64,000 bases of DNA. Origin: an archaeon UBA543. Lineage in GTDB: Archaea > Undinarchaeota > Undinarchaeia > Undinarchaeales > UBA543. The DNA lies in the NCBI GenBank assembly GCA_002502135.1, contig DAPM01000017.1, forward strand, positions 5,548 to 69,547. Reading direction: 5' to 3'. A program made the translations under genes and the position numbers. How positions within the stretch are numbered: the stretch's first letter is position 1; every line of letters begins with the position of its first letter. This document shows, piece after piece, positions 14,200 through 61,324 of this stretch. The notes under the pieces were generated by a model, which saw only the letters and a program-made list of their open reading frames with translations, was not told the DNA's origin and ran no database searches.

Positions 14200-14224
14200 T
14201 ACCTGTTTTCAACCAGTGTGCATG
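14180..14224 (+). promoter_or_regulatory. Putative archaeal TATA promoter for aglB copy 1; member of a duplicated 45-nt upstream sequence
   Basis: AAAAGCATAATCTTTATTAATACCTGTTTTCAACCAGTGTGCATG is near-identical to 16442..16486. The TTTATTAATA box is centred ~27 nt before the ATG, which implies a leaderless mRNA. Confidence 0.5.
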
Positions 14225-16441: not shown

Positions 16442-16486
16442 AAAAGCATAATCTTTATTAATACCAGTTTTCAACCAATGTCTATG
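16442..16486 (+). promoter_or_regulatory. Putative TATA promoter for aglB copy 2 (duplicate of 14180..14224)
   Basis: AAAAGCATAATCTTTATTAATACCAGTTTTCAACCAATGTCTATG has the same TATA box and spacing. Confidence 0.5.
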
Positions 16487-18697
16487 GCAGATGGGGAAGA
16501 AGGTAAATCCTTTAAGTTTTCAGATATAGAGAGCCGGCTAAATGAAGGTCGCGATATCTCTAAAAGTATTACCTGGGTCAAGGAGAACAAAAAGACTGTA
16601 ATCTATCTTGTCTTGTTTCTGATATTACTATTTTCAACGGTTATCCGATTTGCTCCTGAACAACAGTATACAGGAATTTATGAGGACACTCTTGCTCTTG
16701 GGGACTCTTACTGGCATTACAGACACGCAAAAAACGTTTATGAGCATGGTTTTGTGGGTGATGAAGAGCTTTGCTATAACGAGCAAACCAAAGATACCCA
16801 GGCCTATGACGGTTCGTGCCCTGATGGATATGAACCAGCGTATTTTGACACACTGCACGATGCTCCATTTGGGGTTAAAATTGAGCAGGAATTCTATCCA
16901 TATTTCTCAGCTTATTCCTATAAATATTTCGGTAGAGCATTTGCACCTAACTTGCTTGTCTGGCACCGCTGGACACCTGCATTTTTCGGAATCCTATCAG
17001 TTCTTGGAATGTTCCTTCTCGTTAAACAATTATTCGGACCTTATGCCGGACTTGCTGCAGGTTTAATTTTTTCCCTTGCTCCCTATACTATAATCAAAAC
17101 TATTTCAGGAACAGCTGATACTGAAGCAGTTGTGACATTTTTCACTATATTTACTTTCTACTTTTTTGTAAAGGCGTGGAATCTTTCATCATTTAAATAT
17201 GCTGTAGCCGGAGGCATCACTCTCGGATTGTTCGGAATTGCCTGGGCATCCTATAGGTTCGCTCCTGTCCTCATGCTGGCTGTACTATTCTTCTTCTTTT
17301 TGCAGAAAGTTTATCCTAAATTCAAACAAGGGCGCAGGGATATCTTCAAATTAATAAAAGAGCACTTGACAGAGTACTGGAAAAAATATACTACATTCTT
17401 AATAATACTCGCCATTGGACTTCCTATTATCGGTTTTGTCCGCGGCTTCATTCATATTAATTTCTTCTATGCAATTACAACAGCTTTAAAATTAAAAACA
17501 ACAACAGCTGCGACAACAGTTGGAGGAGAAGTCATCCGTGATGTTTACTCTACAATCACTGAAATGAAGCAAATCGGACTTCATACTATTGTAACAAGGC
17601 TTCACCTTGTTCCAGCACTTCTCTGCGCATCTTTCTTTGCTCTTCTTCCATTTGGCTTGTGGAAAAAATACAAGGATAAAGCTCCCCAGGTTCTTTTTAT
17701 TTTAGTCTGGTTTGCAGCTGCAGTTTTTATGACTTTTAAGGCAACCCGATTTATTATAATGCTGATTCTTCCAGTTTCAGTACTTGCTGGAACAGCTGTT
17801 GGATTCGTGATCTCAAAGATGAGGCAAAAGAAGCTTGTTTTTTCGGTTGTAATTGCTGTTATCCTTCTCATAGTGCTTTTTGTTCTTCCAAACATTCCTG
17901 CTCAGCAAGGCCAGCCAGAACTTCCACAATCTGGTGTTTCACGAAATCGTTCATATTTCTCAACTGGAATTGAATTTACATCTCTTCCAAAACCTCTTTT
18001 AAACCAAAATTGGATAAATTTCTACAAATGGGCGCGTGAACAAACTCCAGAAGATGCAATCTTTGCTTCATGGTGGGATCATGGCCACCTAACTACCGCT
18101 GTTGCTGAACGGGCTATTGTAGCAGACGGAAGTCAAAACAATCTTCATATTCACGATCTTGCCGTTATTCTTACTACTAATGACGAAGATCTAGCTGTAG
18201 AGCGATTGAAAAAATACAATGTTTCATACTTCTTCACAAGTTCAGATATGATAAACAAGTATGGACTGATACTATATCTTGCTGATAAACAGGGCAGTGA
18301 GTATACATTAATTGTTAACCCTGAAATCCAAACCACCCCTCTCGGGCCGGTTTTAGTTTATACTATGGATGAAGCAAATAAAATCACTTTGAAACAGGAA
18401 GAAGATGAACGAATATCTGCTACATTAAGACAGGGGTATCAAACAACACCAATCAATCGAACTCTTTATTACACTAATAATTCTACGCCACTCATTTCTG
18501 AAAGCGAGGCAGAGGATGCGCTCGACATGCTGATTTATGTTCTTCCTCAATGGTTTGGAATCTTTCTTTTAAACCCTGAGATTGAAAAATCAATGCTCAC
18601 TCAACTCCACTTTTTCAATGCAGATTATCTTGAGCATTTCGAATTTATTGAAAGTTTTGGCGGAGAAATCAAGGTCTTTAAGGTAAATTATGACTAA
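16484..18697 (+). CDS. aglB: Oligosaccharyltransferase AglB/STT3 family, paralog 2
   Basis: Track start is 16478; the ATG homologous to copy 1 is 16484 (MADGEEG). Motifs: DSYWHYR, STITEM, WWDHGH. A stretch around 16929..16982 is nucleotide-identical to 14697..14750. Confidence 0.75.
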   Translation: MADGEEGKSFKFSDIESRLNEGRDISKSITWVKENKKTVIYLVLFLILLFSTVIRFAPEQQYTGIYEDTLALGDSYWHYRHAKNVYEHGFVGDEELCYNEQTKDTQAYDGSCPDGYEPAYFDTLHDAPFGVKIEQEFYPYFSAYSYKYFGRAFAPNLLVWHRWTPAFFGILSVLGMFLLVKQLFGPYAGLAAGLIFSLAPYTIIKTISGTADTEAVVTFFTIFTFYFFVKAWNLSSFKYAVAGGITLGLFGIAWASYRFAPVLMLAVLFFFFLQKVYPKFKQGRRDIFKLIKEHLTEYWKKYTTFLIILAIGLPIIGFVRGFIHINFFYAITTALKLKTTTAATTVGGEVIRDVYSTITEMKQIGLHTIVTRLHLVPALLCASFFALLPFGLWKKYKDKAPQVLFILVWFAAAVFMTFKATRFIIMLILPVSVLAGTAVGFVISKMRQKKLVFSVVIAVILLIVLFVLPNIPAQQGQPELPQSGVSRNRSYFSTGIEFTSLPKPLLNQNWINFYKWAREQTPEDAIFASWWDHGHLTTAVAERAIVADGSQNNLHIHDLAVILTTNDEDLAVERLKKYNVSYFFTSSDMINKYGLILYLADKQGSEYTLIVNPEIQTTPLGPVLVYTMDEANKITLKQEEDERISATLRQGYQTTPINRTLYYTNNSTPLISESEAEDALDMLIYVLPQWFGIFLLNPEIEKSMLTQLHFFNADYLEHFEFIESFGGEIKVFKVNYD

Positions 18698-19652
18698 AAC
18701 AAGATCAATTGTTTCAAAAGCACTCCCTATCTTTGGAGTCCTTTTGTTCGCATATATTCTTTACAGGGTTGGGCTTGGAAATATCTGGGGCAATATACGA
18801 GTTCTCAATCTAAAGTACTTTTCAATAGCAGTCGCACTGTTAATTCCTACAATTCTCATCAAAGCGTTCAAATGGAACCGAGTCCTGGCTGCCATGGGAT
18901 TCAAATATCCTCTTGGTGAGAGTTCAAAGTCTCTTACAATCTCTTATTTTATTGGCTCGTTAACCCCAGCCCGCCTTGGAGACTTTACAAGAGCACTTTA
19001 TTTGAAAAAATACAAGGTTTCACTTTCAAAAGCATTCTCCTCTGTTCTAATTGACAGATTATTTGATGTCGGAATCCTTGTCCTAATGGCTGTGTTCAGT
19101 GTAATAACACTTGTTCAGAGATTTTCTCTTGCGTTTTCAAGCATTTTACTCGTGCTCTTCATAGCGGTTTCATTTGGAGCTATTCTTCTACTTGTGCTCA
19201 GAAAAAAATTAATGCGAAAACTTCTCAAGCCATTCTTCTATATGTTGATTCCTGAGAAATTCCAGAAACAGCTCATAAATATCTTCGATGACTTTTATAC
19301 TAGCATTGCCGAATTCAGTCAGAATTTGTCAGTGATGTTCTCACTCTCGTTTTTGACATTAATTTCCTGGATAATCTCATTTATTTCAACATATTTTATT
19401 GCACTTTCACTTGGAATTGAAATCAAATTCTTTATACTTCTATTAATGCTCCCATTCTCAACACTAGTTGAAATGCTTCCAATCTCATTCTCAGGAGTCG
19501 GAACCAGAGATGCAGTATTTATCTTAATGTTCTCCCTCCTAGCAATACCAGCTGCAAAAGCAGTTTCATTCTCACTCATGATACTGATTTTCAATTATAT
19601 CCTATGTCTGGTCGGAGCCCTGCTCTGGGTCAAAAAACCATTCAAGGTCTAA
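18690..19652 (+). CDS. UPF0104 / lysylphosphatidylglycerol-synthase-TM-like (flippase-like) membrane protein
   Basis: 320-aa polytopic protein. The overall pattern resembles the flippase-like domain family often found beside GT2 genes. Confidence 0.5.
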   Translation: MTKTRSIVSKALPIFGVLLFAYILYRVGLGNIWGNIRVLNLKYFSIAVALLIPTILIKAFKWNRVLAAMGFKYPLGESSKSLTISYFIGSLTPARLGDFTRALYLKKYKVSLSKAFSSVLIDRLFDVGILVLMAVFSVITLVQRFSLAFSSILLVLFIAVSFGAILLLVLRKKLMRKLLKPFFYMLIPEKFQKQLINIFDDFYTSIAEFSQNLSVMFSLSFLTLISWIISFISTYFIALSLGIEIKFFILLLMLPFSTLVEMLPISFSGVGTRDAVFILMFSLLAIPAAKAVSFSLMILIFNYILCLVGALLWVKKPFKV

Positions 19653-19697: not shown

Positions 19698-22013
19698 ATG
19701 CAGATTGTAGTACTAGCTGGCGGATTGGCAACACGTATGAGACCGGTTACAGAGACCATTCCAAAAGCAATGATTCAGGTCAATGGCAAGCCTTTTCTGG
19801 AGCACCAGATTAAACTATTCCGAAGGAACGGAGTTACTGATATTATCTTGTGTGTTGGATACAGGGCTCAGCAGATAAAGGATTATTTCGGGGACGGCTC
19901 TAAATTCGATGTCAGAATCCGCTACAGTGACGAAGGAGACAACCTAAAAGGCACAGCAGGCGCTCTAAAGCAAGCAGAAGCGCTTCTGGATGACGAATTC
20001 CTTGTGATTTATGGAGATTCTTTTCTCACAACCAATTTTCAGGATGTAATTGATCATTTTAACAAGAATGACAAGTCAGCTCTTTGCACTGTTTACAAAA
20101 ACGATTTAGAATATCACAAAAACAATATGCAGGTTGCAGACGGGATGATTGTAAAGTACGACAAAACTGCTCAGACACCTGAAATGAAGCATGTTGACTA
20201 CGGACTTTCTATTCTCAGAAAATCAATATTGGATTCAATTCATCCTGATCGTGTAATCCAACTTGACGAAATATTCCAAACTCTAATCGCTAACAAGGGG
20301 TTACTTGCTTACGAAGTTTCTGACAGGTTTTATGAAATTGGTGAACCTGAAGGACTTAAACAGTTTGAGGATTATTTGAAGAGTAAAGACGAAACTACAA
20401 AAGCTTCAGGATGTGCTGGGTGTCCAAAATCAAGAATGTGCGGTACTGGGGTTCAGACTTCTTTTGAGCACAAGCGAGTTGAAACAATTGTTGGGCTTCC
20501 TGATAGTGTTGGAAAAGGGAAAAGTATCAAGAAGGTTCTGTTAATCTTTCCACACAGGATAAGTTTTTCCGGATACAAAGAGGATTTATCTCCTCCAATG
20601 GGCATGGCTTGTCTTGGTGCAGTTCTGGAAAACGCAGGATATGAAGTTAAAATTATTGATGCTGCAGCAGAGGATTTCAACCATTCTGAAAAAATTAATG
20701 ACAACATGGTACGGCTCGGAATAAGTATGGAAGACTTGAAACAGAGAATTACAGACTATCATCCTGATTTTGTTGGGGTGTCTTGTCTTTTCACAGCTCA
20801 GATCAAGACTGTTCTTGAAATCTGCAAGTCAATTAAGGAAGTTGATCCAAGTGTTCCTGTTGCAGTTGGTGGTTCTCATCCATCCGCTTTGCCTGAGCAG
20901 TCACTCAAATCACAATTCTTGGATTATGTAATCATTGGAGAAGGTGAATACACTTGCCGAGAGCTTCTCAACAAGCTGAAAACCAATGAGTCAGTTTCTG
21001 ATATTGACGGTTTTGCCTGGAAAGAAGACGGCAAGATTCACGTAAATCCTAAAACAAAATTTATAGAAGACATTAATGAGCTTCCTGAGCCAGCAAGGCA
21101 CTTACTGCCTATGAAAACATATTTTGACATTAATCTACCTCAGTGCGGAACCTCTCTCAAGAGACCGAACACTACAATTGCAACTTCAAGGGGGTGCACA
21201 GGCAACTGTGTGTTCTGTGCAACTACAAAACTCTGGGGAAGACGGTTCAGGCCGTTTGCAGTTGAGCGAGTTCTGGATGAAATGGAGACACTAATCAAGG
21301 ATTACGGAATTAAGGAGTTCCAATTTATTGACGACAACCTCACACTCAACAAAGAACGTGCAATGAAGATTTTCCAGGGAATGATTGACCGAAAATTCAA
21401 TATTGTCTGGAATACTCCGCAAGGTATAGCAATCTGGGCACTGGATAATGAGCTTCTGGACAAAATGAAAGAATCTGGGTGCTACGAAATCACAATTGCT
21501 GTTGAGAGCGGAGACCAGGATGTTCTTACTAACATAATCCACAAGCCAACAAACCTTTCAAAAGTTGAGGGAATTGTAAAACATGCAAAGAAACTCGGCT
21601 TGATTGTGAAAGGATACTTTGTTGTAGGATTCCCGGGTGAAAAGAAATGGCAGATGCAGAAAACTTTTGATATTGCAAAAGACTTGAAGTTTGATGCAGC
21701 TGGAATTTTCATTGCAACACCACTTCCAGGCACACAATTATACAAACAATGCAAGGAAAAAGGGTATCTTCGCCCTGGTTTTGATTTTGAACGTGTGAAT
21801 TATGGAGTTGGAAATATTATTACTCCAGATTTCAAGCCTGAAGAAATCGAGCAGATGGTTTCAGAAAATATTATCAAAATCAACATGGCTCTCTTGTACA
21901 GAAATCCTTGGAAGTTTGCAAAGAAGTATTTCCAGCTTGTTAAGCGAAATCCAAGAGTTATGTTTGATTATATGGGCTTCTTATGGAAGAAAGCAAGGAG
22001 GAAGAAATCATAA
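19698..22013 (+). CDS. Fusion protein: sugar-1-phosphate nucleotidyltransferase (N-terminal) plus cobalamin-binding radical SAM enzyme (C-terminal)
   Basis: 771 aa. The N-terminus MQIVVLAGGLATRMRPVTETIPKAMIQVNGKPFLEHQI is a G-x-G-x-R NTP-transferase fold (HddC/RmlA-like). The middle region is a B12-binding Rossmann (VLLIFPHRISFSGY...VIIGEGEY). Then comes ATSRGCTGNCVFCATT, the CxxxCxxC radical-SAM cluster. Confidence 0.8.
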   Translation: MQIVVLAGGLATRMRPVTETIPKAMIQVNGKPFLEHQIKLFRRNGVTDIILCVGYRAQQIKDYFGDGSKFDVRIRYSDEGDNLKGTAGALKQAEALLDDEFLVIYGDSFLTTNFQDVIDHFNKNDKSALCTVYKNDLEYHKNNMQVADGMIVKYDKTAQTPEMKHVDYGLSILRKSILDSIHPDRVIQLDEIFQTLIANKGLLAYEVSDRFYEIGEPEGLKQFEDYLKSKDETTKASGCAGCPKSRMCGTGVQTSFEHKRVETIVGLPDSVGKGKSIKKVLLIFPHRISFSGYKEDLSPPMGMACLGAVLENAGYEVKIIDAAAEDFNHSEKINDNMVRLGISMEDLKQRITDYHPDFVGVSCLFTAQIKTVLEICKSIKEVDPSVPVAVGGSHPSALPEQSLKSQFLDYVIIGEGEYTCRELLNKLKTNESVSDIDGFAWKEDGKIHVNPKTKFIEDINELPEPARHLLPMKTYFDINLPQCGTSLKRPNTTIATSRGCTGNCVFCATTKLWGRRFRPFAVERVLDEMETLIKDYGIKEFQFIDDNLTLNKERAMKIFQGMIDRKFNIVWNTPQGIAIWALDNELLDKMKESGCYEITIAVESGDQDVLTNIIHKPTNLSKVEGIVKHAKKLGLIVKGYFVVGFPGEKKWQMQKTFDIAKDLKFDAAGIFIATPLPGTQLYKQCKEKGYLRPGFDFERVNYGVGNIITPDFKPEEIEQMVSENIIKINMALLYRNPWKFAKKYFQLVKRNPRVMFDYMGFLWKKARRKKS

Positions 22014-22046
22014 AGCCTTTAAATTAAAATCATCGATTTAACTACA

Positions 22047-23027
22047 ATGATCATAACACAAACCCCACTCAGAATAACACTCGGCGGAGGAGGCACAGAT
22101 TTAGCTTCCTATTACTCAAAACACACAGGATTCCTGATAAGCGCTGCAATCGACAAGTATGTTTACATTAGTTTGCACAAGACTTTTGACAAGGATATTA
22201 CAGCCCACTATTCAAAACATGAGAAAGTTTCAAATGTTGCAGAATTACAGCACCCCATCATCATGGAAGCACTCAAACTCACAGGAATCGAGAGTGGTAT
22301 AGAGGTTTCCAGCATGGCAGACATCCCAGCAGGAACAGGATTAGGTTCTTCCGGATGTTTCACAGTCGGACTTCTGAATGCACTTCACACTTCTAAAAGA
22401 GAAAAATTATCTTCACACGAGCTAGCAGAAGAGGCTTGCAAAATCGAAATTGATCTTCTAAAAGAGCCAATTGGCAAGCAGGATCAGCACGCTTGTGCTA
22501 CAGGGGGCTTGACTGCATTCACTTTTGAGAAAGACGGCACTGTCAAAGCAGAGCCAATGAAAGTTTCCCAGAAAACAATGAATGCACTGGAAGACAATCT
22601 CTTACTTTTCTTTACAAATTACTCCAGAAGTGCTTCAGGTATTCTGAAAGAGCAGGATGACAAGAGCAAACAGGATGAAGATGAAATGATTCAGAACCTG
22701 CACAAAGTCAAAGAGCTTGGTGTTGAGAGCAAGCTTGCACTTGAATCTGGAAATCCTGACAAGCTTGGAGAATTAATGCACATTCACTGGGAGAACAAGA
22801 AAAAACGCTCAGGTTCAATGAGTAATCCTAAAATTGACAAATGGTACAACATTGCAATGGAGAATGGTGCTCTTGGCGGAAAACTGGTTGGCGCTGGCGG
22901 AGGCGGATTCCTGATGTTCTACGCAAATGACAAAGAGAAGCTTCGGGAAGCAATGCGCAAGGAAGGTTTGAGTGAGGTCAGGTTCAGATTCGACTTTGAT
23001 GGTTCTAAAGTATTGGTGAATGTATGA
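22047..23027 (+). CDS. GHMP-family sugar kinase, HddA-like (D-glycero-alpha-D-manno-heptose-7-phosphate kinase-like)
   Basis: 326 aa. MIITQTPLRITLGGGGTDL is the HddA-type N-terminus; the GHMP motif PAGTGLGSSG is present. Confidence 0.7.
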   Translation: MIITQTPLRITLGGGGTDLASYYSKHTGFLISAAIDKYVYISLHKTFDKDITAHYSKHEKVSNVAELQHPIIMEALKLTGIESGIEVSSMADIPAGTGLGSSGCFTVGLLNALHTSKREKLSSHELAEEACKIEIDLLKEPIGKQDQHACATGGLTAFTFEKDGTVKAEPMKVSQKTMNALEDNLLLFFTNYSRSASGILKEQDDKSKQDEDEMIQNLHKVKELGVESKLALESGNPDKLGELMHIHWENKKKRSGSMSNPKIDKWYNIAMENGALGGKLVGAGGGGFLMFYANDKEKLREAMRKEGLSEVRFRFDFDGSKVLVNV

Positions 23028-23788
23028 AGAGAGCAGTTGTAACTGGTGGAAGCGGTGGAATTGGAAAAATTATAGCAAAAGCACTGCACGATAACGGTTT
23101 TGAAATCATTCTTGTTGCTAGAAATGAAGAGAATTTGAAAAAAGCTGCACCAGAAATTGGAACTAATGTTAAAACATTCCCTTGCGATGTTACAAGCTAC
23201 ACTCATGTTGAATCTCTTTTCGCAAATTTTGATAAAATTGATGTTCTAGTAAATTCTGCAGGCATTCTTGGGCCAACTGAAACCCTTGCAGATTCTGACA
23301 TTGCTAATTGGAAGCGAGTACTTGAAGTTAATTTAATAGGAACAGTAAATTGCTGCAAAGCTGCTGGCCCCATTCTTGAAAAGTCAGAGCACGGGAAAAT
23401 TGTGAATATTGCAGGCGGTGGTGCTGCATATGCAAGACCACTTCATTCTGCTTATGCAACTTCAAAAGCAGGAGTAGTCAGGTTCACCGAAGAATTATCA
23501 TTGGAACTGAAGAACACAGATGTTAATGTTATTGCTCCTGGAGCGCACAACACAAAACTCTGGGAAGATGAGAAGGTTGATGAACCGCCAGAGCAGTGGG
23601 CAAACCCAGAAGATGTTGCAAAACTTGTGCTCTATCTTGCTTCTGAAAAATCTAATGGAATTACTGGCAAATTCATACACATCAAGGATGATTACGAAAG
23701 TTTCACTCCAGAGCTTTCAAAATCTGACAAATGCGCATTGAGGCGCGTTGACGACATATTGCTGGAGAAATTGAAAAATGAATTATAA
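23024..23788 (+). CDS. Short-chain dehydrogenase/reductase (SDR)
   Basis: 254 aa. Motifs TGGSGGIGK and YATSKAG (Y-x3-K). Confidence 0.8.
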   Translation: MKRAVVTGGSGGIGKIIAKALHDNGFEIILVARNEENLKKAAPEIGTNVKTFPCDVTSYTHVESLFANFDKIDVLVNSAGILGPTETLADSDIANWKRVLEVNLIGTVNCCKAAGPILEKSEHGKIVNIAGGGAAYARPLHSAYATSKAGVVRFTEELSLELKNTDVNVIAPGAHNTKLWEDEKVDEPPEQWANPEDVAKLVLYLASEKSNGITGKFIHIKDDYESFTPELSKSDKCALRRVDDILLEKLKNEL

Positions 23789-23816
23789 AGTTGAGGAGGT
23801 TGGAAAATACTAATAT

Positions 23817-23889
23817 CGGGGCACTGTGGAACCGCGGGGCCGGAGCGCCGAACGGCGCCCCTGCGCACCCGCGCCCCGGATCCACTGGA
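23817..23889. repeat. GC-rich structured intergenic element (copy A)
   Basis: A ~73-nt stretch of very high GC in a ~40% GC context. The core 23852..23879 (ACGGCGCCCCTGCGCACCCGCGCCCCGG) is the exact reverse complement of 60499..60526. It contains internal hairpins GCGCC-GAAC-GGCGC and GCGC-ACCC-GCGC. Confidence 0.6.
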
Positions 23890-23894
23890 CAAAA

Positions 23895-24860
23895 ATGAAA
23901 ACAGGAATTATTGGTTGCGGTCTAATCGGCTGGCGCAGAGCTAGTTTTCTAGGCGAGGATGAGCTTGTAATGTGCGCAGATGTCGATGAGGAGCGCGCCA
24001 AAAAGCTTGCAGAGGAATTTGATTGCGAATATTCTACTGATTCTACAAAAGTAACAAGTGATCCTCGAATTGAAGCTGTAATTATTTCGACTACAAACCA
24101 ATTCTTAGCAGAAATCGCTACCGATGCTGTCCGAAATAACAAACACTGCTTAATTGAAAAACCAGGAGCAAGAACTCTTGTTGAATATGAGCAGTTGATG
24201 AATGTTGCTAAAGAGCAAGGCGTTAAAGTGAAAATCGGTTACAATCACAGATTCCACCCATCCTTCTTGAAAGCTAGGGAGATTGTTGATTCTGGAGAAA
24301 TTGGTGAAGTAATGTATGTCAGGGGAAGGTATGGTCACGGCGGACGGCTTGGGTACGATAAAGAGTGGCGTGCAGATCCGCAAAAGTCTGGTGGTGGTGA
24401 GATGCTAGATCAGGGAACTCACTTAATTGACTTGGCTCGATGGTTCTGTGGCGAATTCACAGATGTTAAAGGCCATGTTGGCACTTTCTTCTGGGACATG
24501 CCAGTTGAGGATAATGGTTTTGCGCTCCTAAAAACAGATTCAGGCAAAGTTGCATGGCTGACTGCAAGCTGTACTCAGTGGAAGAATTTGTTCTGCTTTG
24601 AGATTCACTGCAAAACTGGATTGCTTGTAATTGACGGTCTTGGCAAGAGTTATGGCAAAGAAACACTCACTTTCCACAAAATGAAGCCTGAAATGGGTAT
24701 TCCTGATACTGAAACCTTCACTTGGGATGAAGATGATTCCTGGAAAAAGGAGTGGGTTGAGTTTAGAAGTGCGATTTCAGAGAATCGGGAGCCAATGAGC
24801 TCAATCTCAGATGCTTATGGAAACTTTAAGGTTGTTTCTGACCTCTACAAAACCCACTGA
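23895..24860 (+). CDS. Gfo/Idh/MocA-family NAD(P)-dependent oxidoreductase
   Basis: Track ORF starts at 23826, but its first 23 aa translate the GC-rich element. The real start is MKTGIIGCGLIGWRRA (Rossmann), followed by a C-terminal Gfo/Idh/MocA alpha/beta domain. Confidence 0.8.
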   Translation: MKTGIIGCGLIGWRRASFLGEDELVMCADVDEERAKKLAEEFDCEYSTDSTKVTSDPRIEAVIISTTNQFLAEIATDAVRNNKHCLIEKPGARTLVEYEQLMNVAKEQGVKVKIGYNHRFHPSFLKAREIVDSGEIGEVMYVRGRYGHGGRLGYDKEWRADPQKSGGGEMLDQGTHLIDLARWFCGEFTDVKGHVGTFFWDMPVEDNGFALLKTDSGKVAWLTASCTQWKNLFCFEIHCKTGLLVIDGLGKSYGKETLTFHKMKPEMGIPDTETFTWDEDDSWKKEWVEFRSAISENREPMSSISDAYGNFKVVSDLYKTH

Positions 24861-24904
24861 TTTTAACATACATAACCCTTAAAACCTCTTTTCCCGACCA
24901 TTTT

Positions 24905-25516
24905 TTGATAATAATGGATAATGTAGAGTATATCAACAAATACTTTTCCGAAATGAAAGATGTTATTGGAAACATCTCTGCGGAAGACACAGCTGGGGTA
25001 GTTAATGCGCTATTCACAGCCTGGAAAAACGGAAACCAAGTATTCCTAATTGGAAACGGTGGTTCTGCAAGCACAGCCACTCACATGGCATGCGACCTAA
25101 ACAAGTGCACAATTGTTGAGGGAAAACCTCGAATGAAAGCTCTTGCACTGGTTGACAATATTCCAGTAGTCAGCGCACTTACAAATGACGACGGCTGGGG
25201 TGAAATTTATGTTGAACAGCTTAAGAATTTCTTTAAAACAGGTGATGTTGTTATTGCTTTTAGTGTTCACGGCGGATCTGGAAGCGACAAGGCAGGTGCC
25301 TGGTCACAGAACCTTTTGAAAGGACTGCAGTATGCAAAAGATAATGGCGGAGTTGCAATTGGAATCTCCGGGTTTGACGGCGGAGCAATGAAGCAAATGG
25401 CAGACCACTGCATTGTAGTGCCTGTGGAATCAACACCACACACCGAATCACTGCATTTAGCAATCGAGCATCTCATTACAAACTGCTTGAAGGAGAAAAT
25501 AATCAACCAAGCATGA
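24905..25516 (+). CDS. gmhA: SIS-domain sedoheptulose-7-phosphate isomerase (GmhA-like), copy 1
   Basis: 203 aa. FLIGNGGSASTATHMACDL is the GmhA signature. Confidence 0.75.
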   Translation: MIIMDNVEYINKYFSEMKDVIGNISAEDTAGVVNALFTAWKNGNQVFLIGNGGSASTATHMACDLNKCTIVEGKPRMKALALVDNIPVVSALTNDDGWGEIYVEQLKNFFKTGDVVIAFSVHGGSGSDKAGAWSQNLLKGLQYAKDNGGVAIGISGFDGGAMKQMADHCIVVPVESTPHTESLHLAIEHLITNCLKEKIINQA

Positions 25517-26118
25517 AAAGAGCAGTTTTCCTTGACAGAGATGACACAATAAATAAGTCAATTTACATTTCAGATGAGAACAGGATTGAGAGTCCTCTAA
25601 AACCAGAGGAATTCGAACTGTTTTCAACAGCAGGAGACGCAATCAAAATCTTCAATGAACTTGGATTCCTGGTAATTGTGGTCACAAATCAGCCCGCAAT
25701 TGCAAAAGCAAAAACAACAGTTGAACTAGTTGATCAAATTCACGAAAAAATGAAAGCAGATCTTGAAGCTCAAGGCACTCAGGTGGATGAGGTTTACTAT
25801 TGCCCTCACTCAGAACCTGGAAAAGGAAAAATCCCTGAGTTTACAAAAATCTGTGACTGCAGAAAGCCTGGACAAGGTATGTTTTTGCAGGCAAAAGAGA
25901 GATTCGATATTGACATGGAAAATTCATATATGATAGGTGATAGCTGGCGAGATATTAAAGTTGGAAATTCGCTAGGCTGCACTACATTTAAAGTCGATCA
26001 TTCAATGATCGAAACTCATAGTGATTTAATCACAGAACAGCTAAATAATCCAGATCACAAGGTTAAGGATTTATATGAGGCTGCATTACTAATCAAAAAC
26101 TTAGAGGAGAAAAAATAA
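25513..26118 (+). CDS. gmhB: D-glycero-D-manno-heptose-1,7-bisphosphate phosphatase (HAD, GmhB-like)
   Basis: 201 aa. FLDRDDTIN (DxDxT), VVTNQ, and CPHSEPGKGKIPEFTKICDCRKP (GmhB Zn-binding Cys/His insert). Confidence 0.75.
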   Translation: MKRAVFLDRDDTINKSIYISDENRIESPLKPEEFELFSTAGDAIKIFNELGFLVIVVTNQPAIAKAKTTVELVDQIHEKMKADLEAQGTQVDEVYYCPHSEPGKGKIPEFTKICDCRKPGQGMFLQAKERFDIDMENSYMIGDSWRDIKVGNSLGCTTFKVDHSMIETHSDLITEQLNNPDHKVKDLYEAALLIKNLEEKK

Positions 26119-26119
26119 A

Positions 26120-26773
26120 ATGGACATTTATATAGACACTGCAAATCTTGAAGAAATAAAAAACGCTGTTGATATGGGCATCATAGATGGGTGCACAACC
26201 AATCCAGCAATTGTTGCCAAAGAGGGATGTGAATTTGAAAGCAGGATGAAGGAAATCCTTGCACTTGTCAAAGGCCCTGTCAGCATTGAAGTTACTACAA
26301 TTGATGTTGACACAATGGTTGAAGAAGCTGTAAAGTATTCAAAATGGGGCGACAATGTTGTTGTCAAAATCCCTATGGATGCAAACGGGCTTCGCGCAAC
26401 AAAAATCCTAACGGAAAAAGGCATCAAAACTAATGTGACCTGTTGCATGAGCTCAACTCAGGCAGTTCTGGCTGCAAAAGCAGGAGCAACATACGTTTCT
26501 CTGTTCTACGGCAGAATCGCTGACATGGGTTATGATGCAATGTACGAACTTGCAGATGCTGTAAATATTTTTGAACATTCTGGATTTGAATCCAAGATTA
26601 TTGCAGGAAGCCTAAGATCTGTTGCTGATGTTATGACAGCAATCCGCGCAGGAGTGCACATAGTTACTGTTCCGCCTGCATCTCTTAACAAAATGTACGT
26701 TCACCCAAGAACAAAAGAAACTATCCAGGAATTCCTGGACTTCTGGGCTGACTACAAGAAAAAACATAAGTGA
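26120..26773 (+). CDS. Transaldolase / fructose-6-phosphate aldolase (short TalC/FSA type)
   Basis: 217 aa. Begins MDIYIDTANLEEIK with the Schiff-base-lysine region VVVKIP. Confidence 0.8.
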   Translation: MDIYIDTANLEEIKNAVDMGIIDGCTTNPAIVAKEGCEFESRMKEILALVKGPVSIEVTTIDVDTMVEEAVKYSKWGDNVVVKIPMDANGLRATKILTEKGIKTNVTCCMSSTQAVLAAKAGATYVSLFYGRIADMGYDAMYELADAVNIFEHSGFESKIIAGSLRSVADVMTAIRAGVHIVTVPPASLNKMYVHPRTKETIQEFLDFWADYKKKHK

Positions 26774-27510
26774 GAATGGACGGAGACCACGACATAACAC
26801 TGTTTTTCCCTGTTTATAATGAAGAGGGGAACATACGTTCAGTTATCACTACTGCAAGCAATGTTCTGAAAAAGATTTCACGGAATTATGAAGTTCTGCT
26901 TGTGCTTTATGCTGGTTCTACTGATAAAAGTGAGGAAATCATCCGAGAAATGGCTAAAGAGGATCCGCACATCAGGCTGGTAATTCAGCCTACAAGCGAT
27001 CCTGGAGTCGGCAGAGCTTACAGAATTGGTTTTGAGCAGGCAAAGTATCCGATTATTGCTTATTCTGATTCTGACAACCAGTTCAACTTAAATGAGCTTG
27101 TGAAATTCCTCCCATACCTTGATGAGTATGACATTATTGCAGGTTACAAATTGAAACGACAGGATCCACTTCCAAGAATAATCACTTCTTGGGGCTACAA
27201 CACACTAGTGAGAACTCTTTTCAGGATAAACACAATGGATGTTAATACTGCTTTCAGGGTTGTGAAGAAACCAGTTCTGGATAAAGTCAAATTAACTTCA
27301 AGACTTGGAACAGTCACAACCGAACTTCTTGTAAAAGCAAAAAAGAACGGGTTCAGCATAAAACAGATAGGCGTAACCCACTTTCCAAGAACAGAAGGCA
27401 AGCCTTTATACGAAGTTACAAGCGGAATGCTGTCACCAAAAACAATAATCAATGTTTCAAAGGAAATTGTAAGGCTTTGGTGGAGTGTTAATGTGAGGAA
27501 ACAATACTAA
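26770..27510 (+). CDS. Family-2 glycosyltransferase (Dol-P-sugar-synthase-like, soluble)
   Basis: 246 aa. LFFPVYNEEGNI...YSDSDNQ (DxD). Confidence 0.75.
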   Translation: MRMDGDHDITLFFPVYNEEGNIRSVITTASNVLKKISRNYEVLLVLYAGSTDKSEEIIREMAKEDPHIRLVIQPTSDPGVGRAYRIGFEQAKYPIIAYSDSDNQFNLNELVKFLPYLDEYDIIAGYKLKRQDPLPRIITSWGYNTLVRTLFRINTMDVNTAFRVVKKPVLDKVKLTSRLGTVTTELLVKAKKNGFSIKQIGVTHFPRTEGKPLYEVTSGMLSPKTIINVSKEIVRLWWSVNVRKQY

Positions 27511-28483: not shown

Positions 28484-29425
28484 TTGGAAATCAATGATTT
28501 CGTAAGCTTGCTGAAATGCCCGGCGTGTTGGAAGCCTGGTCTTGAACCTGTAATACAGAATGATAGGACTTTTTTGCATTGCAAATCCTGCAGTCTTTTG
28601 TATGCATTCAGGAAGAATTTTGTGAATTTTATGGATTCTTTCAAATCTGCTGGGATGAAATTAAAAGATTTCAAACCAGAGAAGCTTGGTGAGCAGGATT
28701 CAAGCAGAACAGACTTGAGGATGATTTCCTACAACTACTACACAAGACACAAAGCATTTTTCAAAAAAGCAGACATTGATTTCAAGAGCACTGTTGTTGA
28801 TGTTGGGTGTTCAGCAGGTGTGCTGGCCCAGAACTTCGAGAATTATGTTGGTCTTGACTTATCAGAAGATCTAGAAAATGTTGCAAAAGACAATCCTGCG
28901 AAGTTTTTTGTCAGAGCCGATGCAATGCAAATGCCATTTGTTGATAACTGTTTTGACTCTTTTGTATCAAGACACCTTCTTGAGCACACTCCAACACCTC
29001 GAAAAGTTCTATCAGAACTGAAAAGGGTTTGCAGAAGTGGTGGTGTTCTTGAACTTCCTGTAAAAGAATTCCCCTTCCTCTTCGATCCTCTTAATTTCAC
29101 TCTTCAAAAAATGAAAAAACAGCCTAAGAAGTTCGGAATCTATGGTTTCGGACATCAACGGGTGTTTGCAACAAAAGAATGGGATGAAATTATTACAAGC
29201 ACTTTCAAAATCAAGGATTCTGTAAAGTTGTGCAGAGGCGCTTTCTACAATCTAATCTGTCTTTTTGAGAATATTCTGTTCTCCAGAAAAGATGATTATG
29301 ATGTGCCTAGCCAGCAAGTTAAAAAGTGGCTGCTCAAACCACTAAATCTTATTTACGATCTCCTGAACCTGATCGATCCTAAGATCACAGGCTCTCACAC
29401 CATTCTTTACAATGTTGAACCATGA
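28484..29425 (+). CDS. Class I SAM-dependent methyltransferase with N-terminal Zn-ribbon
   Basis: 313 aa. CPACW...CKSC ribbon, then VVDVGCSAGV (motif I). Confidence 0.6.
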   Translation: MEINDFVSLLKCPACWKPGLEPVIQNDRTFLHCKSCSLLYAFRKNFVNFMDSFKSAGMKLKDFKPEKLGEQDSSRTDLRMISYNYYTRHKAFFKKADIDFKSTVVDVGCSAGVLAQNFENYVGLDLSEDLENVAKDNPAKFFVRADAMQMPFVDNCFDSFVSRHLLEHTPTPRKVLSELKRVCRSGGVLELPVKEFPFLFDPLNFTLQKMKKQPKKFGIYGFGHQRVFATKEWDEIITSTFKIKDSVKLCRGAFYNLICLFENILFSRKDDYDVPSQQVKKWLLKPLNLIYDLLNLIDPKITGSHTILYNVEP

Positions 29426-30993
29426 AAAACAAGACTCTACTCCTATTATTGCTTATAATTCTAACTGGAGCTGTGCTCAGGTTTGCTTTTCTTGCAAGTC
29501 CTAGCATCAGAGGAGATGAAGGTCCTGCTCTTTTCATGAGTGAGCGTCCTTTTGGAGAATTGTGGGAGAACACTAAAGCAGATTCCCATCCTCCACTATT
29601 CTATCTTGTGCTTAGGGCGGTTCCAAAAATCGGGGAAATCCTACCATACCGCTTGCTTGTTGCAATTCTAAGTATTGCAGCGATTCCAGTTGCATTCCTG
29701 CTCGGTAAAAAACTGTTTAATGAAAATGTTGGCTTGTTTTCAGCATTCATGTTCTCAATTTCGCAGATGAATATAAAATACGCCCAAATGGTGAGAAGCT
29801 ATTCTCTGATAACTTTACTTGCAATGCTTTCAATTTACTTTTTCATATCATACTTGAAAGATAGAAAGACTTCGCAAATTACCTGGTGGGTTGTTTTCTC
29901 AGCATTAGCCTGCTGGACTCACTACTTCATGCTGTTCGTGCTTGTTGCTGAAGCAGCTTACATTCTGTCTTATCATTTGAAAGACAAAAAACTCATTAAA
30001 TCATTTTTCTTCCATGGATTTTTGCTGGTGATTCTAATTGCCCCGCTTGCTCCGCTTTTCCAAGCTCAATCTGCAACAATAAAGGATGTCTTGGCTCCGA
30101 TTTATCAGTATAATGATCCACTTCTCCAGCCAACCCTGACTACACCAATTGCAAATAATATCCTGGTCCGGAATGCAATGATGTTCTTTCATTTGAGTGT
30201 TGGTCACACAAAATTCACTCCAACAGTCTTTTTCGCAGTCTTTTTTGCGCTCACTGCTCTTGCATTCGGCTTGCCATTGCTTGCTAATCTGAAAAATCTA
30301 CTTAAAGATAAGAAAACATTCTTGCCATTAGCCCTATTCCTTTCAGTTCCAATCTTCATGTCGCTTATGTGGATTACAAAGTTCTTGATTTACCATACGT
30401 ATGCTCGATATCTTTTGTTTGTATCACCTCTTTACTATCTCTTTATTTCAAAAGGAGTGTTTAATCTAAAGAATTTAATTCCGAAAATCAATTTAAAGAA
30501 AGTGGTAATTGTTTTTGCAATCCTGATTCTTGCTTTGAATGCAGTTTCCTTGTATGGATATTATACAAGCACACTCCAGCATGAAAATTTCAAATATTTG
30601 ACTTCAAAAATCACTGGAGCTGGCTCTGAAGATGTTATAATTATCCACACTGGTTTTTATTCCCAAAATATTGAGCGAACTTACAAAGGAGAAGCTCAAA
30701 TCTGTCTTGGCCCAGATGGAATAAAAGTAGGTCCAGACATTACGATTTTGGATTATTTGAAATCAAAGAAACCAGCAACAGAAGAGAACAAGTGCGACAT
30801 TCTCAAATGTACCGAAGGCGCTGATAATATCTGGCTTATGCAGAACAATCCTAGTGTTCATGACTCTGAAAAACTTTTGAAAAACTGCCTTGAAAATAAT
30901 TTCAAGCTGGAAAACACTTATTCCAATACCTATAAGAACGCTCAAGGGGAAGACGAAACAGATTTCTTCCTTTATGAATTCACTAAACAATGA
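29422..30993 (+). CDS. GT-C fold membrane glycosyltransferase (ArnT/PMT, GT39/GT83-like)
   Basis: 523-aa polytopic protein. The first loop carries RGDEGPALFMSER...SHPPLFY, typical of ArnT/PMT-type Dol-P/Und-P-sugar-dependent transferases. Confidence 0.6.
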   Translation: MKNKTLLLLLLIILTGAVLRFAFLASPSIRGDEGPALFMSERPFGELWENTKADSHPPLFYLVLRAVPKIGEILPYRLLVAILSIAAIPVAFLLGKKLFNENVGLFSAFMFSISQMNIKYAQMVRSYSLITLLAMLSIYFFISYLKDRKTSQITWWVVFSALACWTHYFMLFVLVAEAAYILSYHLKDKKLIKSFFFHGFLLVILIAPLAPLFQAQSATIKDVLAPIYQYNDPLLQPTLTTPIANNILVRNAMMFFHLSVGHTKFTPTVFFAVFFALTALAFGLPLLANLKNLLKDKKTFLPLALFLSVPIFMSLMWITKFLIYHTYARYLLFVSPLYYLFISKGVFNLKNLIPKINLKKVVIVFAILILALNAVSLYGYYTSTLQHENFKYLTSKITGAGSEDVIIIHTGFYSQNIERTYKGEAQICLGPDGIKVGPDITILDYLKSKKPATEENKCDILKCTEGADNIWLMQNNPSVHDSEKLLKNCLENNFKLENTYSNTYKNAQGEDETDFFLYEFTKQ

Positions 30994-32489
30994 ATACTGA
31001 AAAAAAATACAGCAAAATCTCTGGACAAGTAATCTTCTCAAACATCGTTTTAGTTCTAACAATCCTGATTTCTCCAGTTCTGATTGCGCTTCTTACAAGA
31101 GTTCTTAGTATTGCAGATTTTGGAGTTTATTCTCTTCTGACTTCTTTTGTAGCATTAATGTCACTGCTTCTGATTCTTGGATTGTCAAAATATATTATTG
31201 CCCGCTTGCCTGGAAAACAAAGAACTGAGCAAGCAACCAAATTCTATGCAATTGTAATTTTCAATGCAGTAATTGTTGCAGTTCTCTTACTTGTTGCATA
31301 CTTCAGTCCATTCAAACCATGGTTCTTAGGGATAACAAACCTGCAAGCATACAGCGCTGAATTTGGAATTTGTTTGTTTGTAATCTTTGCAATGGCAATG
31401 GGTAAGTTGTTTTTTGAATACTACAGTGCCAAAGAACGCCTAAATTTCGCAAATACAATGGATTTTTTAGTTAACAAGGGCTGGATGTTTATTCTTGTTG
31501 CAATTTTCCTGATTTTCAGAAGCTTCACCCTCTCTCAGGTGTTTATTGTTTGGCTTGTCGGAGTTGTGCTCGCTGTTTTAATCTATTCTCTCTGTTCACT
31601 CGGAGATATCAAAATATTCCTTAAAGAAAAATTCAATACTGCTGTGCTGAAACGAGCATTGTGGTTTGGGCTTCCGGTTATACCAGTTGTAATTTCTGGT
31701 TGGCTTATCTCACTTAGCGATCGATTTATTCTAAACCACTTTATGACTGCAGAAGCAGTAGGACTCTATACTCTTCCATATTCACTTCTTGGAGTTGTCA
31801 AAACTTTCGGAACATCTGCAAGTGTTGTAATTCTGCCTTATTTTGCAGCTGCATACAACAATAAGAATAAAGATTCTACAAAACTGATAAGTGCTGCAAT
31901 GAAATTCGGGCTTGTTCTAATTGTTCCTTTCTTGGTGGGCGCAGCAGTTCTTGGAAAGCAGATTATTCTGATAATTTCTGGAGCAAAATACCTTCCTGCA
32001 GTTCCATATCTTCTTCCACTTCTTCTCTATCCACTATTCTACTTCATGGCTTCAATTTTCTATGATGGTCTTGTTGTTGCTGGCCAGACAAAACATGCTG
32101 GAATCGCTTATACTGGCGCTGCAATTCTAAATATTATTCTAAATATCTGGTGGATTCCAAAAATAGGCATCTATGGAGCCGTTTTCTCAACAGTTCTTAG
32201 CTACTTGCTAATGTCTATTTACATGTATTCTGTGTTCAAAAAATACTGTAAAATCAGTCCAAGCTTTATAAAATTCGGGAGAATACTGATTGCTAGCATT
32301 ATCATGGGCATTCCTATTTACTTTATCAATCCTAGTGGACTTTTCATGACAGTAGCTACAACAGCACTCGGTGGAGCAATATATTGTATCCTTCTGCTTG
32401 TTTTCAAAGTAATTTCACATCACGAATTAAGATTATTCTTCAGCAAAGTGCCTGTAGTTCATAAAATTATTGATAAAATATTTGCTTAA
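30990..32489 (+). CDS. Wzx-like polysaccharide/oligosaccharide flippase (MOP superfamily)
   Basis: 499 aa with about 12-14 TM segments and a polysaccharide-biosynthesis-protein-like pattern. Confidence 0.7.
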   Translation: MNTEKKYSKISGQVIFSNIVLVLTILISPVLIALLTRVLSIADFGVYSLLTSFVALMSLLLILGLSKYIIARLPGKQRTEQATKFYAIVIFNAVIVAVLLLVAYFSPFKPWFLGITNLQAYSAEFGICLFVIFAMAMGKLFFEYYSAKERLNFANTMDFLVNKGWMFILVAIFLIFRSFTLSQVFIVWLVGVVLAVLIYSLCSLGDIKIFLKEKFNTAVLKRALWFGLPVIPVVISGWLISLSDRFILNHFMTAEAVGLYTLPYSLLGVVKTFGTSASVVILPYFAAAYNNKNKDSTKLISAAMKFGLVLIVPFLVGAAVLGKQIILIISGAKYLPAVPYLLPLLLYPLFYFMASIFYDGLVVAGQTKHAGIAYTGAAILNIILNIWWIPKIGIYGAVFSTVLSYLLMSIYMYSVFKKYCKISPSFIKFGRILIASIIMGIPIYFINPSGLFMTVATTALGGAIYCILLLVFKVISHHELRLFFSKVPVVHKIIDKIFA

Positions 32490-36346: not shown

Positions 36347-36347
36347 T

Positions 36348-38790: not shown

Positions 38791-38841
38791 CTAATTACTA
38801 TGAATTTTGATTTTTGCTTTAAATTGTTTATGATTTTACTT

Positions 38842-43047: not shown

Positions 43048-43152
43048 ACAAAACAGGTGTTTGAATTGGGTATTTTAAGGTTATGCAAGTTTATAGCACC
43101 GAATAGTTTATCACAACCTTAATAACCACTTTTCAGAACACAATTCTTACAA

Positions 43153-44174: not shown

Positions 44175-44207
44175 CTCTTTTAACCTAAAATCAGGACGTT
44201 CAATTCA

Positions 44208-46972: not shown

Positions 46973-46973
46973 T

Positions 46974-60468: not shown

Positions 60469-60491
60469 TTTTTGTTTGTCCTCCTTATGAA

Positions 60492-60569: not shown

Positions 60570-60571
60570 AG

Positions 60572-61276: not shown

Positions 61277-61324
61277 TGTTTTTATGCTCTTGATTTTCGG
61301 TTATAAAGATTATGTATTGGGGCT

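Follow-up and report, generated by a model that had tools for sequence, protein, structure and literature searches.

A probable copy of a widespread variant heptose-activation module in an Undinarchaeota glycosylation island, with the nucleotidyltransferase fused to a cobalamin-binding radical SAM domain

The described routes to nucleotide-activated heptose include the bacterial GmhA/HddA/GmhB/HddC pathway, in which the GHMP-type kinase implies the alpha-anomer route, and the ADP-heptose (beta) pathway of GmhA, HldA and HldC (or HldE), accompanied by a GT9 glycosyltransferase, which unlike the alpha route uses a PfkB-type kinase and an adenylyltransferase of the cytidylyltransferase fold. Heptose as such is already known in archaea: the N-glycan of Thermoplasma acidophilum contains D-glycero-D-galacto-heptose (PMC11407970, PMC12448462), an ADP-heptose cluster has been predicted in 'Iplasma' from acid mine drainage (PMC3750248), and nucleoside diphosphate (NDP)-beta-heptose enzymes have been assayed and found functional in some archaea, as the work of Tang et al. 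(2024) is reported in PMC11461863. Here we describe a block of genes at positions 19698–26773 of a 64,000-nucleotide stretch of DNA (hereafter the window; contig DAPM01000017.1 of assembly GCA_002502135.1) from the marine archaeon UBA543, a member of Undinarchaeota, which are small-genome DPANN archaea; heptose, transaldolase and glycosylation go unmentioned in the paper on their genomes (PMC7414124). The block probably (roughly 60%) represents, in Undinarchaeota, a widespread variant of the alpha-type route to nucleotide-linked heptose, located in an N-glycosylation island and equipped with a radical S-adenosylmethionine (SAM) domain that acts on the NDP-heptose.

Compared with the bacterial alpha-type pathway, the block contains the same four enzyme classes, ordered by the same logic, and the solved structures nearest to its kinase are HddA and WcbL. 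It differs in that the four proteins score well below the respective equivalog cut-offs, the SIS-domain isomerase carries Asp/Glu at two key positions, the module adds a transaldolase, a Gfo/Idh/MocA oxidoreductase, a short-chain dehydrogenase/reductase (SDR) and a GalE-like SDR, and, in this window, the nucleotidyltransferase (NTase) forms one polypeptide with a B12-binding radical SAM enzyme. What is new here is the variant module as such, together with this fusion. An initial annotation of the window had proposed a GDP-type heptose pathway with its own supply of sedoheptulose-7-phosphate and had held that heptose was not described in archaeal N-glycosylation, which the Thermoplasma glycan shows to be wrong. 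All seven block genes that it listed, and the transketolase, are present on the forward strand at the coordinates it gave and with every motif it quoted; the first open reading frame (ORF), read as a nucleotidyltransferase, does contain an NTP_transferase domain but encodes a 771-residue fusion protein. The genes in question are the following.

9928–11880, + strand: transketolase (Pfam Transketolase_N/pyr/C), in the same position in the related contigs L002, L009 and L173
19698–22013, + strand: fusion ORF of NTase and B12-binding radical SAM enzyme, 771 amino acids
19698–20387, + strand: NTP_transferase domain of the fusion (PF00483), residues 1–230
20388–20522, + strand: linker of the fusion, residues 231–275, delimited in the alignment of four fusion proteins
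20523–22013, + strand: B12-binding radical SAM domain of the fusion (PF02310, PF04055), residues 276–771
22047–23027, + strand: HddA-like GHMP anomeric sugar kinase, starting with MIITQTPLRITLGGGGTDL
23024–23788, + strand: classical SDR oxidoreductase (Pfam/NCBIfam), a conserved module member
23895–24860, + strand: Gfo/Idh/MocA oxidoreductase (ORF open from GTG 23826)
24905–25516, + strand: GmhA-like SIS isomerase with GNGGSAS
25513–26118, + strand: GmhB-like HAD-IIIA phosphatase with DRDDT and CPH...CDCRKP
26120–26773, + strand: short transaldolase (TAL_FSA), 217 amino acids
27510–28481, + strand: GalE-like extended SDR

The start of the Gfo/Idh/MocA gene is probably ATG 23895, in which case the 321-residue product equals its L002 counterpart in length, and that of the SIS gene is probably ATG 24914. 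The block is part of a single, tightly packed string of co-directional genes on the forward strand between 12.2 and 32.5 kb, in which adjacent block ORFs overlap by 1–4 nucleotides or stand less than 50 nucleotides apart. Synteny of the block is conserved in four related contigs, with 60–87% protein identity, and in comparison with these relatives synonymous sites are saturated whereas the proportion of nonsynonymous differences (pN) is about 0.1, so that these ORFs are real genes.

The same gene set recurs far outside Undinarchaeota. In a scan of one genome per species, the kinase family is found, with 60–67% identity across phyla, in at least 580 species of bacteria and archaea. Partner genes were counted in the best 80 of these at least 580 loci, which are assessable only where the flank suffices, and the counts come from single-sequence phmmer searches and are lower bounds: next to the kinase, an NTase is present in 57 of the 58 assessable loci, the SIS protein in 49, the HAD phosphatase in 43 and the transaldolase in 50, and, of 55 assessable loci, 46 contain the GalE-like SDR, 35 the classical SDR and 32 the Gfo/Idh/MocA protein. 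The usual order, verified by Pfam search of one locus (L041), is extended SDR, (UDP-sugar dehydrogenase), SDR, Gfo, GHMP kinase, NTase, SIS, HAD and transaldolase. Hosts include Verrucomicrobiota, Acidobacteriota, Planctomycetota, Legionella and Coxiellaceae (Legionellales), Methylococcales, Lachnospiraceae, Bifidobacteriaceae, Methanospirillum and Hadarchaeota. Our literature search found no description of the module (as a combination of hddA, gmhA and transaldolase) and no characterized member, so that biochemical work on a single case would allow a large family of genes for surface glycans to be annotated.

The individual enzymes point in the same direction. In a PDB sequence search, the four best solved relatives of the kinase are all heptokinases, namely those of Bacteroides thetaiotaomicron (3k85), Campylobacter jejuni (HddA, 4n3o) and Burkholderia pseudomallei (WcbL, 4usk/4usm), which are D-glycero-D-manno-heptose kinases, with E-values of 8e-46 to 2e-39, compared with 5e-16 for fucokinase, 1e-11 for galactokinase and 4e-9 for mevalonate kinase; the ranking of NCBIfam matches agrees with this order, which upholds the view of the kinase as HddA-like rather than a galacto- or mevalonate kinase. 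Its alignment with the HddA equivalog NF049969 runs end to end (residues 2–321 against positions 3–334 of 338), proteins from 'Candidatus Undinarchaeales archaeon' are 88% and 84% identical to it, and assemblies from Tara Oceans and elsewhere contain an identical copy. In PDB (E about 1e-19) and NCBIfam, the matches of the SIS protein are GmhA and DiaA only, in line with its annotation as a GmhA-type enzyme; an arabinose-5-phosphate isomerase of the KpsF/GutQ type was considered and rejected, there being no such match in either database. At the positions of GmhA His61, Glu65, Gln172 and His180 (Escherichia coli numbering), the window protein and all 60 module SIS proteins compared have His, Asp, Glu and His, and the module proteins form a distinct GmhA-like subfamily with two conservative substitutions. 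The phosphatase has the HAD-IIIA motifs DRDDT, VTNQ and GDSWRD and the Cys/His zinc insert CPH...CDCRKP, clears the cut-offs of the domain models TIGR01662 and TIGR01656, and may fill the GmhB role proposed for it.

The transaldolase of the window resembles that of Thermotoga maritima (1vpx, 219 bits) and scores slightly below the cut-off of TIGR00875 (226.9 against 245.95 bits), and its residues Asp6, Glu57, Lys83 and Phe129 are of the transaldolase type. Identification as FSA was rejected, since the protein has Phe rather than Tyr and Glu rather than Gln. Among the module transaldolases, all catalytic residues are retained in 54–56 of 56 sequences, and from this conservation and its frequency in the loci the enzyme appears to be an integral member of the module, which supports the suggestion of the initial annotation that the gene in the cluster provides a dedicated supply of sedoheptulose-7-phosphate.

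From family assignments and gene order, a route can be proposed in which the transaldolase, together with transketolase, would produce sedoheptulose-7-phosphate, which the GmhA-like isomerase would convert to an aldoheptose-7-phosphate. The HddA-like kinase would then place a phosphate on the anomeric position, the GmhB-like phosphatase would remove the 7-phosphate, and the N-terminal domain of the fusion protein would form the NDP-heptose. The fused radical SAM domain would subsequently modify the nucleotide-linked sugar, most likely by C-methylation, which is favored here as the commonest class B chemistry, and the Gfo/Idh/MocA, SDR and GalE-like enzymes would reset stereocenters, probably C3 and C4.

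The fusion itself is real. The identical protein is encoded on 10 contigs from several sources, including a Tara mesopelagic sample of the 0.1–0.22 µm fraction, and relatives with 92, 79 and 77% identity share both the architecture and the neighbors. Against the 79% relative, the nonsynonymous and synonymous proportions (pN/pS) are 0.108/0.747 in the NTase domain and 0.119/0.807 in the radical SAM domain; pN of the domains is similar to that of the other cluster genes, compared with 0.27 in the linker (about 0.11 in the domains), and both domains are under purifying selection. An assembly or frameshift artifact is rejected given the recurrence in independent assemblies and the selection. In a sister Undinarchaeota metagenome-assembled genome that is a GTDB representative (L009), the syntenic position is occupied by a stand-alone NTase of 230 amino acids (64% identity over 229 amino acids) and no radical SAM gene is present at the locus, the order being transketolase, PTH2, TruD, AglB, AglB, LPG synthase, NTase and GHMP kinase; it follows that the radical SAM domain was gained, and joined to the NTase, within a single sub-lineage of Undinarchaeota. 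Among 1.84 billion cluster representatives, a single cluster has the fusion at 50% identity or more, and the fusion is apparently confined to one Undinarchaeota lineage. The NTase domain matches the NTases of bacterial modules with 130–250 bits, mostly about 200, and is the orthologue of the module's own stand-alone NTase.

Although the linker is elsewhere under the weakest constraint of any part of the protein and is predicted by AlphaFold to be disordered (predicted local distance difference test score, pLDDT, below 50), all four fusion proteins share CxxCx5C and, after it, TSFEH in this segment, and the cysteines may form a metal or cluster site. AlphaFold gives a usable model of the radical SAM domain and none of the NTase domain or the interface, which are covered by only four fusion sequences.

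With a Rossmann B12 domain, a barrel and CxxxCxxC (C500/C504/C507, nucleotides 21195–21218), the C-terminal domain is a cobalamin-binding (class B) radical SAM enzyme (PF02310, 91.9 bits; PF04055, 72.4 bits). Its model has pLDDT above 90 over residues 276–740. In a PDB sequence search, all matches were class B enzymes of distant relationship, with Fom3 not among them. The genomic contexts of its homologues, in which identity to the window domain generally declines from first to last, are as follows.

60% identity (L089/L004, the closest stand-alone proteins): flanked by what remains of the C-terminus of a module-type SIS gene (upstream) and by a degenerate GmhB N-terminus (downstream)
50–53% (L091–L094): glycan clusters with a GT9 heptosyltransferase-family protein, PMT_2, GT4, methyltransferase, radical SAM-SPASM protein and carbamoyltransferase
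43–44% (L107): adjoining GmhA, an HldE-type kinase and GmhB
45% (P0114, L113): Fom1/Fom2/FomC-like phosphonate clusters with an adjacent cytidylyltransferase
33–46% (P0275, P0267, P0043): fused to GT2 and/or methyltransferase domains
39% (P0276): fused to a DegT/EryC1 NDP-sugar aminotransferase, in a deoxyaminosugar cluster with NTase, 4,6-dehydratase and isomerase
35% (P0265/P0393): an independent NTase-radical SAM fusion adjoining a gene for a phosphoenolpyruvate (PEP) mutase-NTase, with an aminotransferase-NTase-radical SAM triple fusion at the same locus

The common denominator of these contexts appears to be a substrate that carries a nucleotide. The SIS remnant in L089 is 50% identical to module-type SIS over 54 amino acids (E 2e-19), and this locus seems to be a decayed heptose module that retains only the radical SAM gene; in tblastn searches, module remnants were found in the L089/L004 lineage only. 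On the same bacterial contig (907–2742; the lineage of L004 and L005), the catalytic DxD of the GmhB-like remnant is changed to HRD. B12-binding radical SAM genes of other subfamilies lie in or beside the module in three phyla, in one genome each of Elusimicrobia, Oscillospiraceae and Gammaproteobacteria. Among other observations on this family, a low-GC region of 22 kb (positions 1–22202 of L171, the 166-kb ENA contig NODE_310) contains at least eight B12-binding radical SAM genes or domains, including a 733-residue NTase-radical SAM fusion and an 1115-residue triple fusion around genes for PEP mutase-NTase, GT2, GT9 and a flippase, and looks like a rich source of radical chemistry on nucleotide handles, and the homologue P0368 (797 amino acids) has its sequence split by an intein that carries an HNH endonuclease domain.

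Two kinds of characterized enzymes are relevant for the reaction of the radical SAM domain. GenK, GenD1 and MoeK5 are sugar-modifying C-methylases with a B12 domain, and with these and the diol dehydratase AprD4 (PDB 6fd2), the top fold match, the window domain shares the Rossmann B12-like domain and the radical SAM barrel that act on carbohydrate carbons. Unlike the enzyme proposed here, all four work on aminoglycoside or phosphoglycolipid intermediates rather than nucleotide sugars, and, to our knowledge, none is fused to an NTase. In fosfomycin biosynthesis, the class B enzyme Fom3 accepts only cytidylyl-2-hydroxyethylphosphonate, the product of Fom1, so that an NTase adds a nucleotide handle and a B12 radical SAM enzyme then methylates (PMC8158854). 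The window shares this scheme, and homologues of its radical SAM domain are found in Fom-like clusters, but the Fom substrate is a phosphonate and the NTase is of the CTP_transf_like fold, whereas the window has a PF00483 NTase that is covalently fused. Action on NDP-heptose is favored by the Fom3 precedent, by the orthology of the fused NTase to that of the heptose module and by a rough neighbor-joining tree in which the window domain joins the proteins of the SIS-remnant and GT9 contexts, apart from those of phosphonate contexts. A literature search for B12 radical SAM enzymes in connection with nucleotide sugars and heptose yielded nothing relevant.

A bolder version of this proposal, which we advance only tentatively, is that the 771-residue protein makes an NDP-heptose and then C-methylates it to yield a branched or eight-carbon sugar of the N-glycan, that its radical SAM clade recognizes nucleotide handles, and that the module leads to a non-manno heptose. 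If true, the protein would be the first of the cobalamin radical SAM enzymes with a nucleotide-activated sugar as its substrate, and recognition of nucleotide handles would be a general rule for the clade. The fusion thus suggests a new reaction class, the radical tailoring of a nucleotide sugar, for which the sister species with the NTase alone is a natural control.

A number of results weigh against the assignment of the block to NDP-heptose synthesis and radical modification. All four core proteins fall short of their curated equivalogs: the kinase has 176.6 bits to NF049969 (cut-off 600), the isomerase 87.8 to the GmhA model TIGR00441 (209.45), the phosphatase 138.7 to the GmhB model NF006506 (178; also 87.9 to the alpha-specific NF050049, with the cut-off of 250) and the NTase domain 106.4 to the HddC model NF049965 (300), and the sugar, as judged from these scores, could differ from D-glycero-D-manno-heptose. 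The SIS signature departs from GmhA at two catalytic or metal positions. The nucleotide, GDP included, is an assumption as far as the NTase comparison goes. For the radical SAM domain, the family that ranks first in NCBIfam is the Sden_1168 P-methyltransferase family (304.6 bits against a cut-off of 575), and the fold matches, which include non-methylases, do not separate a methylase from an AprD4-like dehydratase. The close stand-alone homologues L001 and L008 have an uninformative context of thioredoxin-like and MFS genes, those with 35–45% identity sit in phosphonate clusters, the tree is a sketch without support values, and a phosphonate module with no B12-binding radical SAM gene among its members is present in the window. 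Finally, the organism would need to scavenge cobalamin. For the alpha-type heptose activation of the initial annotation, the logic of isomerase, anomeric kinase, phosphatase and NTase fits, although no curated equivalog cut-off is reached, and two of its specifics remain assumptions: 'GDP', because in NCBIfam the MurU, archaeal GlmU and ManC models score equal to or above HddC for the NTase domain (in PDB, E is 4e-16 for HddC 5xhw and 5e-23 for other NTases), and 'manno', because the SIS subfamily has Asp and Glu in place of GmhA Glu65 and Gln172.

The alternative that survives best, and that we regard as a serious contender at somewhat less than even odds, is that the module makes another heptose, gluco or galacto as in Thermoplasma or altro as with HygP, or, with lower probability, a sugar of another chain length, with SIS setting C2 and the Gfo/Idh/MocA, SDR and GalE-like enzymes setting C3 and C4. 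The extended SDR is most similar to GalE 4-epimerases and, among solved structures, the Gfo/Idh/MocA protein is closest to DgpA, levoglucosan dehydrogenase and KijD10, which belong to the sugar C3 dehydrogenases and 3-ketoreductases, so that, with the invariant SIS signature, the final sugar may well not be manno. The galacto-heptose of T. acidophilum (PMC12448462) and the use of HygP for making altro-heptose from sedoheptulose-7-phosphate (PMC10948575) provide precedents, and a near-canonical GmhA encoded elsewhere in the window makes it unlikely that the divergent SIS protein is redundant. On the other hand, the changes of Glu to Asp and Gln to Glu are conservative and may preserve the chemistry. 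Furthermore, C. jejuni keeps two gmhA copies for manno-heptose.

It is also conceivable, but rather improbable, that the transaldolase and the transketolase are housekeeping enzymes of the pentose phosphate pathway's non-oxidative branch with no dedicated link to heptose. Undinarchaeota genomes are small (PMC7414124) and single copies probably serve general metabolism, and the window transaldolase is canonical and T. maritima-like. For the transketolase, which the initial annotation had named as another source of sedoheptulose-7-phosphate, the gene is present and syntenic, but the link is the weaker one, with PTH2, TruD, methyltransferase and AglB genes between it and the module. The transaldolase, in contrast, is the terminal module gene in the 50 of 58 loci mentioned above, which belong to unrelated phyla that include bacteria expected to possess a housekeeping transaldolase as well, and in the window it starts one nucleotide past the GmhB stop and overlaps the following GT2 gene by four nucleotides.

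Two further alternatives concern the radical SAM domain. The first, which is the main rival to action on NDP-heptose but which we consider unlikely, is that it serves the phosphonate pathway encoded downstream, by Fom3-like methylation of nucleotidyl-2-hydroxyethylphosphonate or by methylation at phosphorus, the fusion being incidental or reflecting a shared nucleotide-binding partner. Apart from the match to the Sden_1168 family and the missing B12-binding radical SAM gene in the phosphonate module, this is suggested by the Nanoarchaeota homologue P0114 in its Fom-like cluster beside a cytidylyltransferase, by the independent fusion P0265/P0393 next to a PEP mutase-NTase gene, and by a 43% identical homologue that is named 'phosphonoacetaldehyde methylase' by JGI. 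However, the NTase domain of P0265 has 86 bits to the NTase of the window phosphonate module (41378–42097) and only 47 bits to the fused domain, which is the heptose-module orthologue and not of the phosphonate type; the fusion gene heads the heptose operon, about 18–20 kb from the phosphonate genes; and the nearest relatives (50–60%) are in heptose and GT9 contexts, with the phosphonate-context proteins in a separate clade of the tree. The second, a minor alternative that we consider improbable, is that the domain catalyzes diol dehydration as AprD4 does, or a rearrangement as OxsB or HpnJ do, with a deoxy-keto- or ring-contracted heptose as the product for reduction by the SDR. Although AprD4, which dehydrates sugar 1,2-diols in conjunction with a reductase, is the top match in both PDB sequence and fold, the HpnJ and BchE models (among others) also score and SDR and Gfo reductases are adjacent, the few class B enzymes in PDB (AprD4, TsrM, MgmA, CysS, TokK and OxsB) all match about equally (E 1e-20 to 1e-23), a methyltransferase is by far the best curated family (304.6 bits compared with 91 for AprD4), and the SDR and Gfo genes belong to the module with or without the radical SAM gene.

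In addition to the alpha-type block, the window encodes a set of genes for the ADP-heptose (beta) pathway with a GT9 enzyme.

45827–46972, - strand: GT9 heptosyltransferase-like protein
46974–47432, - strand: HldC (TIGR02199, 204.7 bits, above the cut-off of 181.5)
47429–48349, - strand: HldA-type PfkB kinase (TIGR02198, 335.4 bits, just below the cut-off of 345)
48346–48888, - strand: near-canonical GmhA (TIGR00441, 185.2 bits, just below the cut-off of 209.45)

There is no GmhB within this set (45827–48888), and the only GmhB-like gene in the window is the one at 25513–26118, which may serve both heptose routes. The ADP-type route would share the sedoheptulose-7-phosphate pool with the alpha block, as well as, probably, this phosphatase.

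Both sets lie in a glycosylation island that spans roughly 13–63 kb of the 64-kb window and contains the following other genes and gene groups.

Upstream part of the 12.2–32.5 kb string, + strand: TruD, then a TylF-like methyltransferase
14153–16435, + strand: AglB/STT3 oligosaccharyltransferase, paralogue 1 (WWDxG in the translation; PF02516 STT3 on the syntenic L002 and L173 genes)
16478–18697, + strand: AglB/STT3 oligosaccharyltransferase, paralogue 2, in tandem and directly upstream of the following genes (WWDxG; PF02516 on the syntenic L002 and L173 genes)
18690–19652, + strand: LPG_synthase_TM-family membrane protein (PF03706, 157.8 bits)
26770–27510, + strand: GT2 polyprenyl-phosphate glycosyltransferase-like protein
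28484–29425, + strand: methyltransferase
29422–30993, + strand: PMT_2 GT-C enzyme
30990–32489, + strand: Wzx-type flippase
33060–35373: radical SAM/SPASM protein, then a DUF4910/M28-like protein, just downstream of the flippase
35396–40686, - strand: nonulosonic-acid route with a NeuB-family synthase (37756–38790), a CMP-sugar synthetase-like CTP_transf_3 protein (37019–37759), GT2, extended SDR and a 614-residue surface-carbohydrate biosynthesis protein
40683–45830: phosphonate module with a CDP-alcohol phosphatidyltransferase-family protein, NTase (41378–42097), Fe-ADH, split phosphonopyruvate decarboxylase and PEP mutase-NTase
55035–58615: second trio of PMT_2, LPG_synthase_TM and GT2
60094–62206: pair of GT2 and DUF2304, and a Glycos_transf_4 (AglH-like) gene

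The heptose module thus lies between the AglB genes and the flippase, and for heptose in an archaeal N-linked glycan the Thermoplasma acidophilum/Cuniculiplasma glycan is the precedent. In the three-component systems AglD/AglR/AglS of Haloferax and GtrA/GtrB/Gtr* of bacteria, a single sugar is attached on the outer side of the membrane by a GT2 enzyme, a flippase-like protein and a GT-C enzyme. To these, the GT2, LPG_synthase_TM and PMT_2 proteins of the window are similar at the family level only, and the GT2 enzyme matches dolichyl-phosphate hexose transferase and ArnC weakly (about 50 bits, where the cut-offs are 375 and 529). By this analogy, the LPG_synthase_TM protein would act as the flippase-like component alongside the GT2 and GT-C enzymes, and the three would place the sugar on dolichyl phosphate and then transfer it to the glycan outside the cell. 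The two AglB copies are also present in L009 and in L173/L174, whereas L002 shows one, and the paralogues diverge fast among the relatives (50–64% identity, compared with 83–90% for the transketolase and the kinase).

The PEP mutase-NTase fusion of the phosphonate module has 540 amino acids and passes the cut-off of the PEP mutase model TIGR02320, and the module suggests a nucleotide-activated 2-hydroxyethylphosphonate that decorates a glycan or lipid. A radical SAM/SPASM gene like that downstream of the flippase is found in the GT9-context cluster L093 as well. For a genome-reduced DPANN archaeon, glycan genes take up a large share of these 64 kb, where two routes to heptose and one each to nonulosonic acid and phosphonate are encoded next to the two AglB genes, which suggests that surface glycans are central to the presumed host-associated lifestyle.

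Two intergenic inserts of about 80 nucleotides each (23812–23890 and 60484–60565) stand out with a GC content of about 80% in a window of 39% GC. They have an exact 26-nucleotide core, GGCGCCCCTGCGCACCCGCGCCCCGG, in common, in the same orientation relative to the surrounding transcription, and each folds into a long GC hairpin. They have no match in the Rfam gathering scan of the window and contain no tRNA (ARAGORN found one unrelated tRNA in the window), and neither the syntenic relatives nor any of the 168 loci examined have them. The first insert gives rise to the spurious N-terminus of the Gfo/Idh/MocA ORF that starts at GTG 23826, and the two may represent a small mobile element that forms a hairpin, or else an RNA element within operons.

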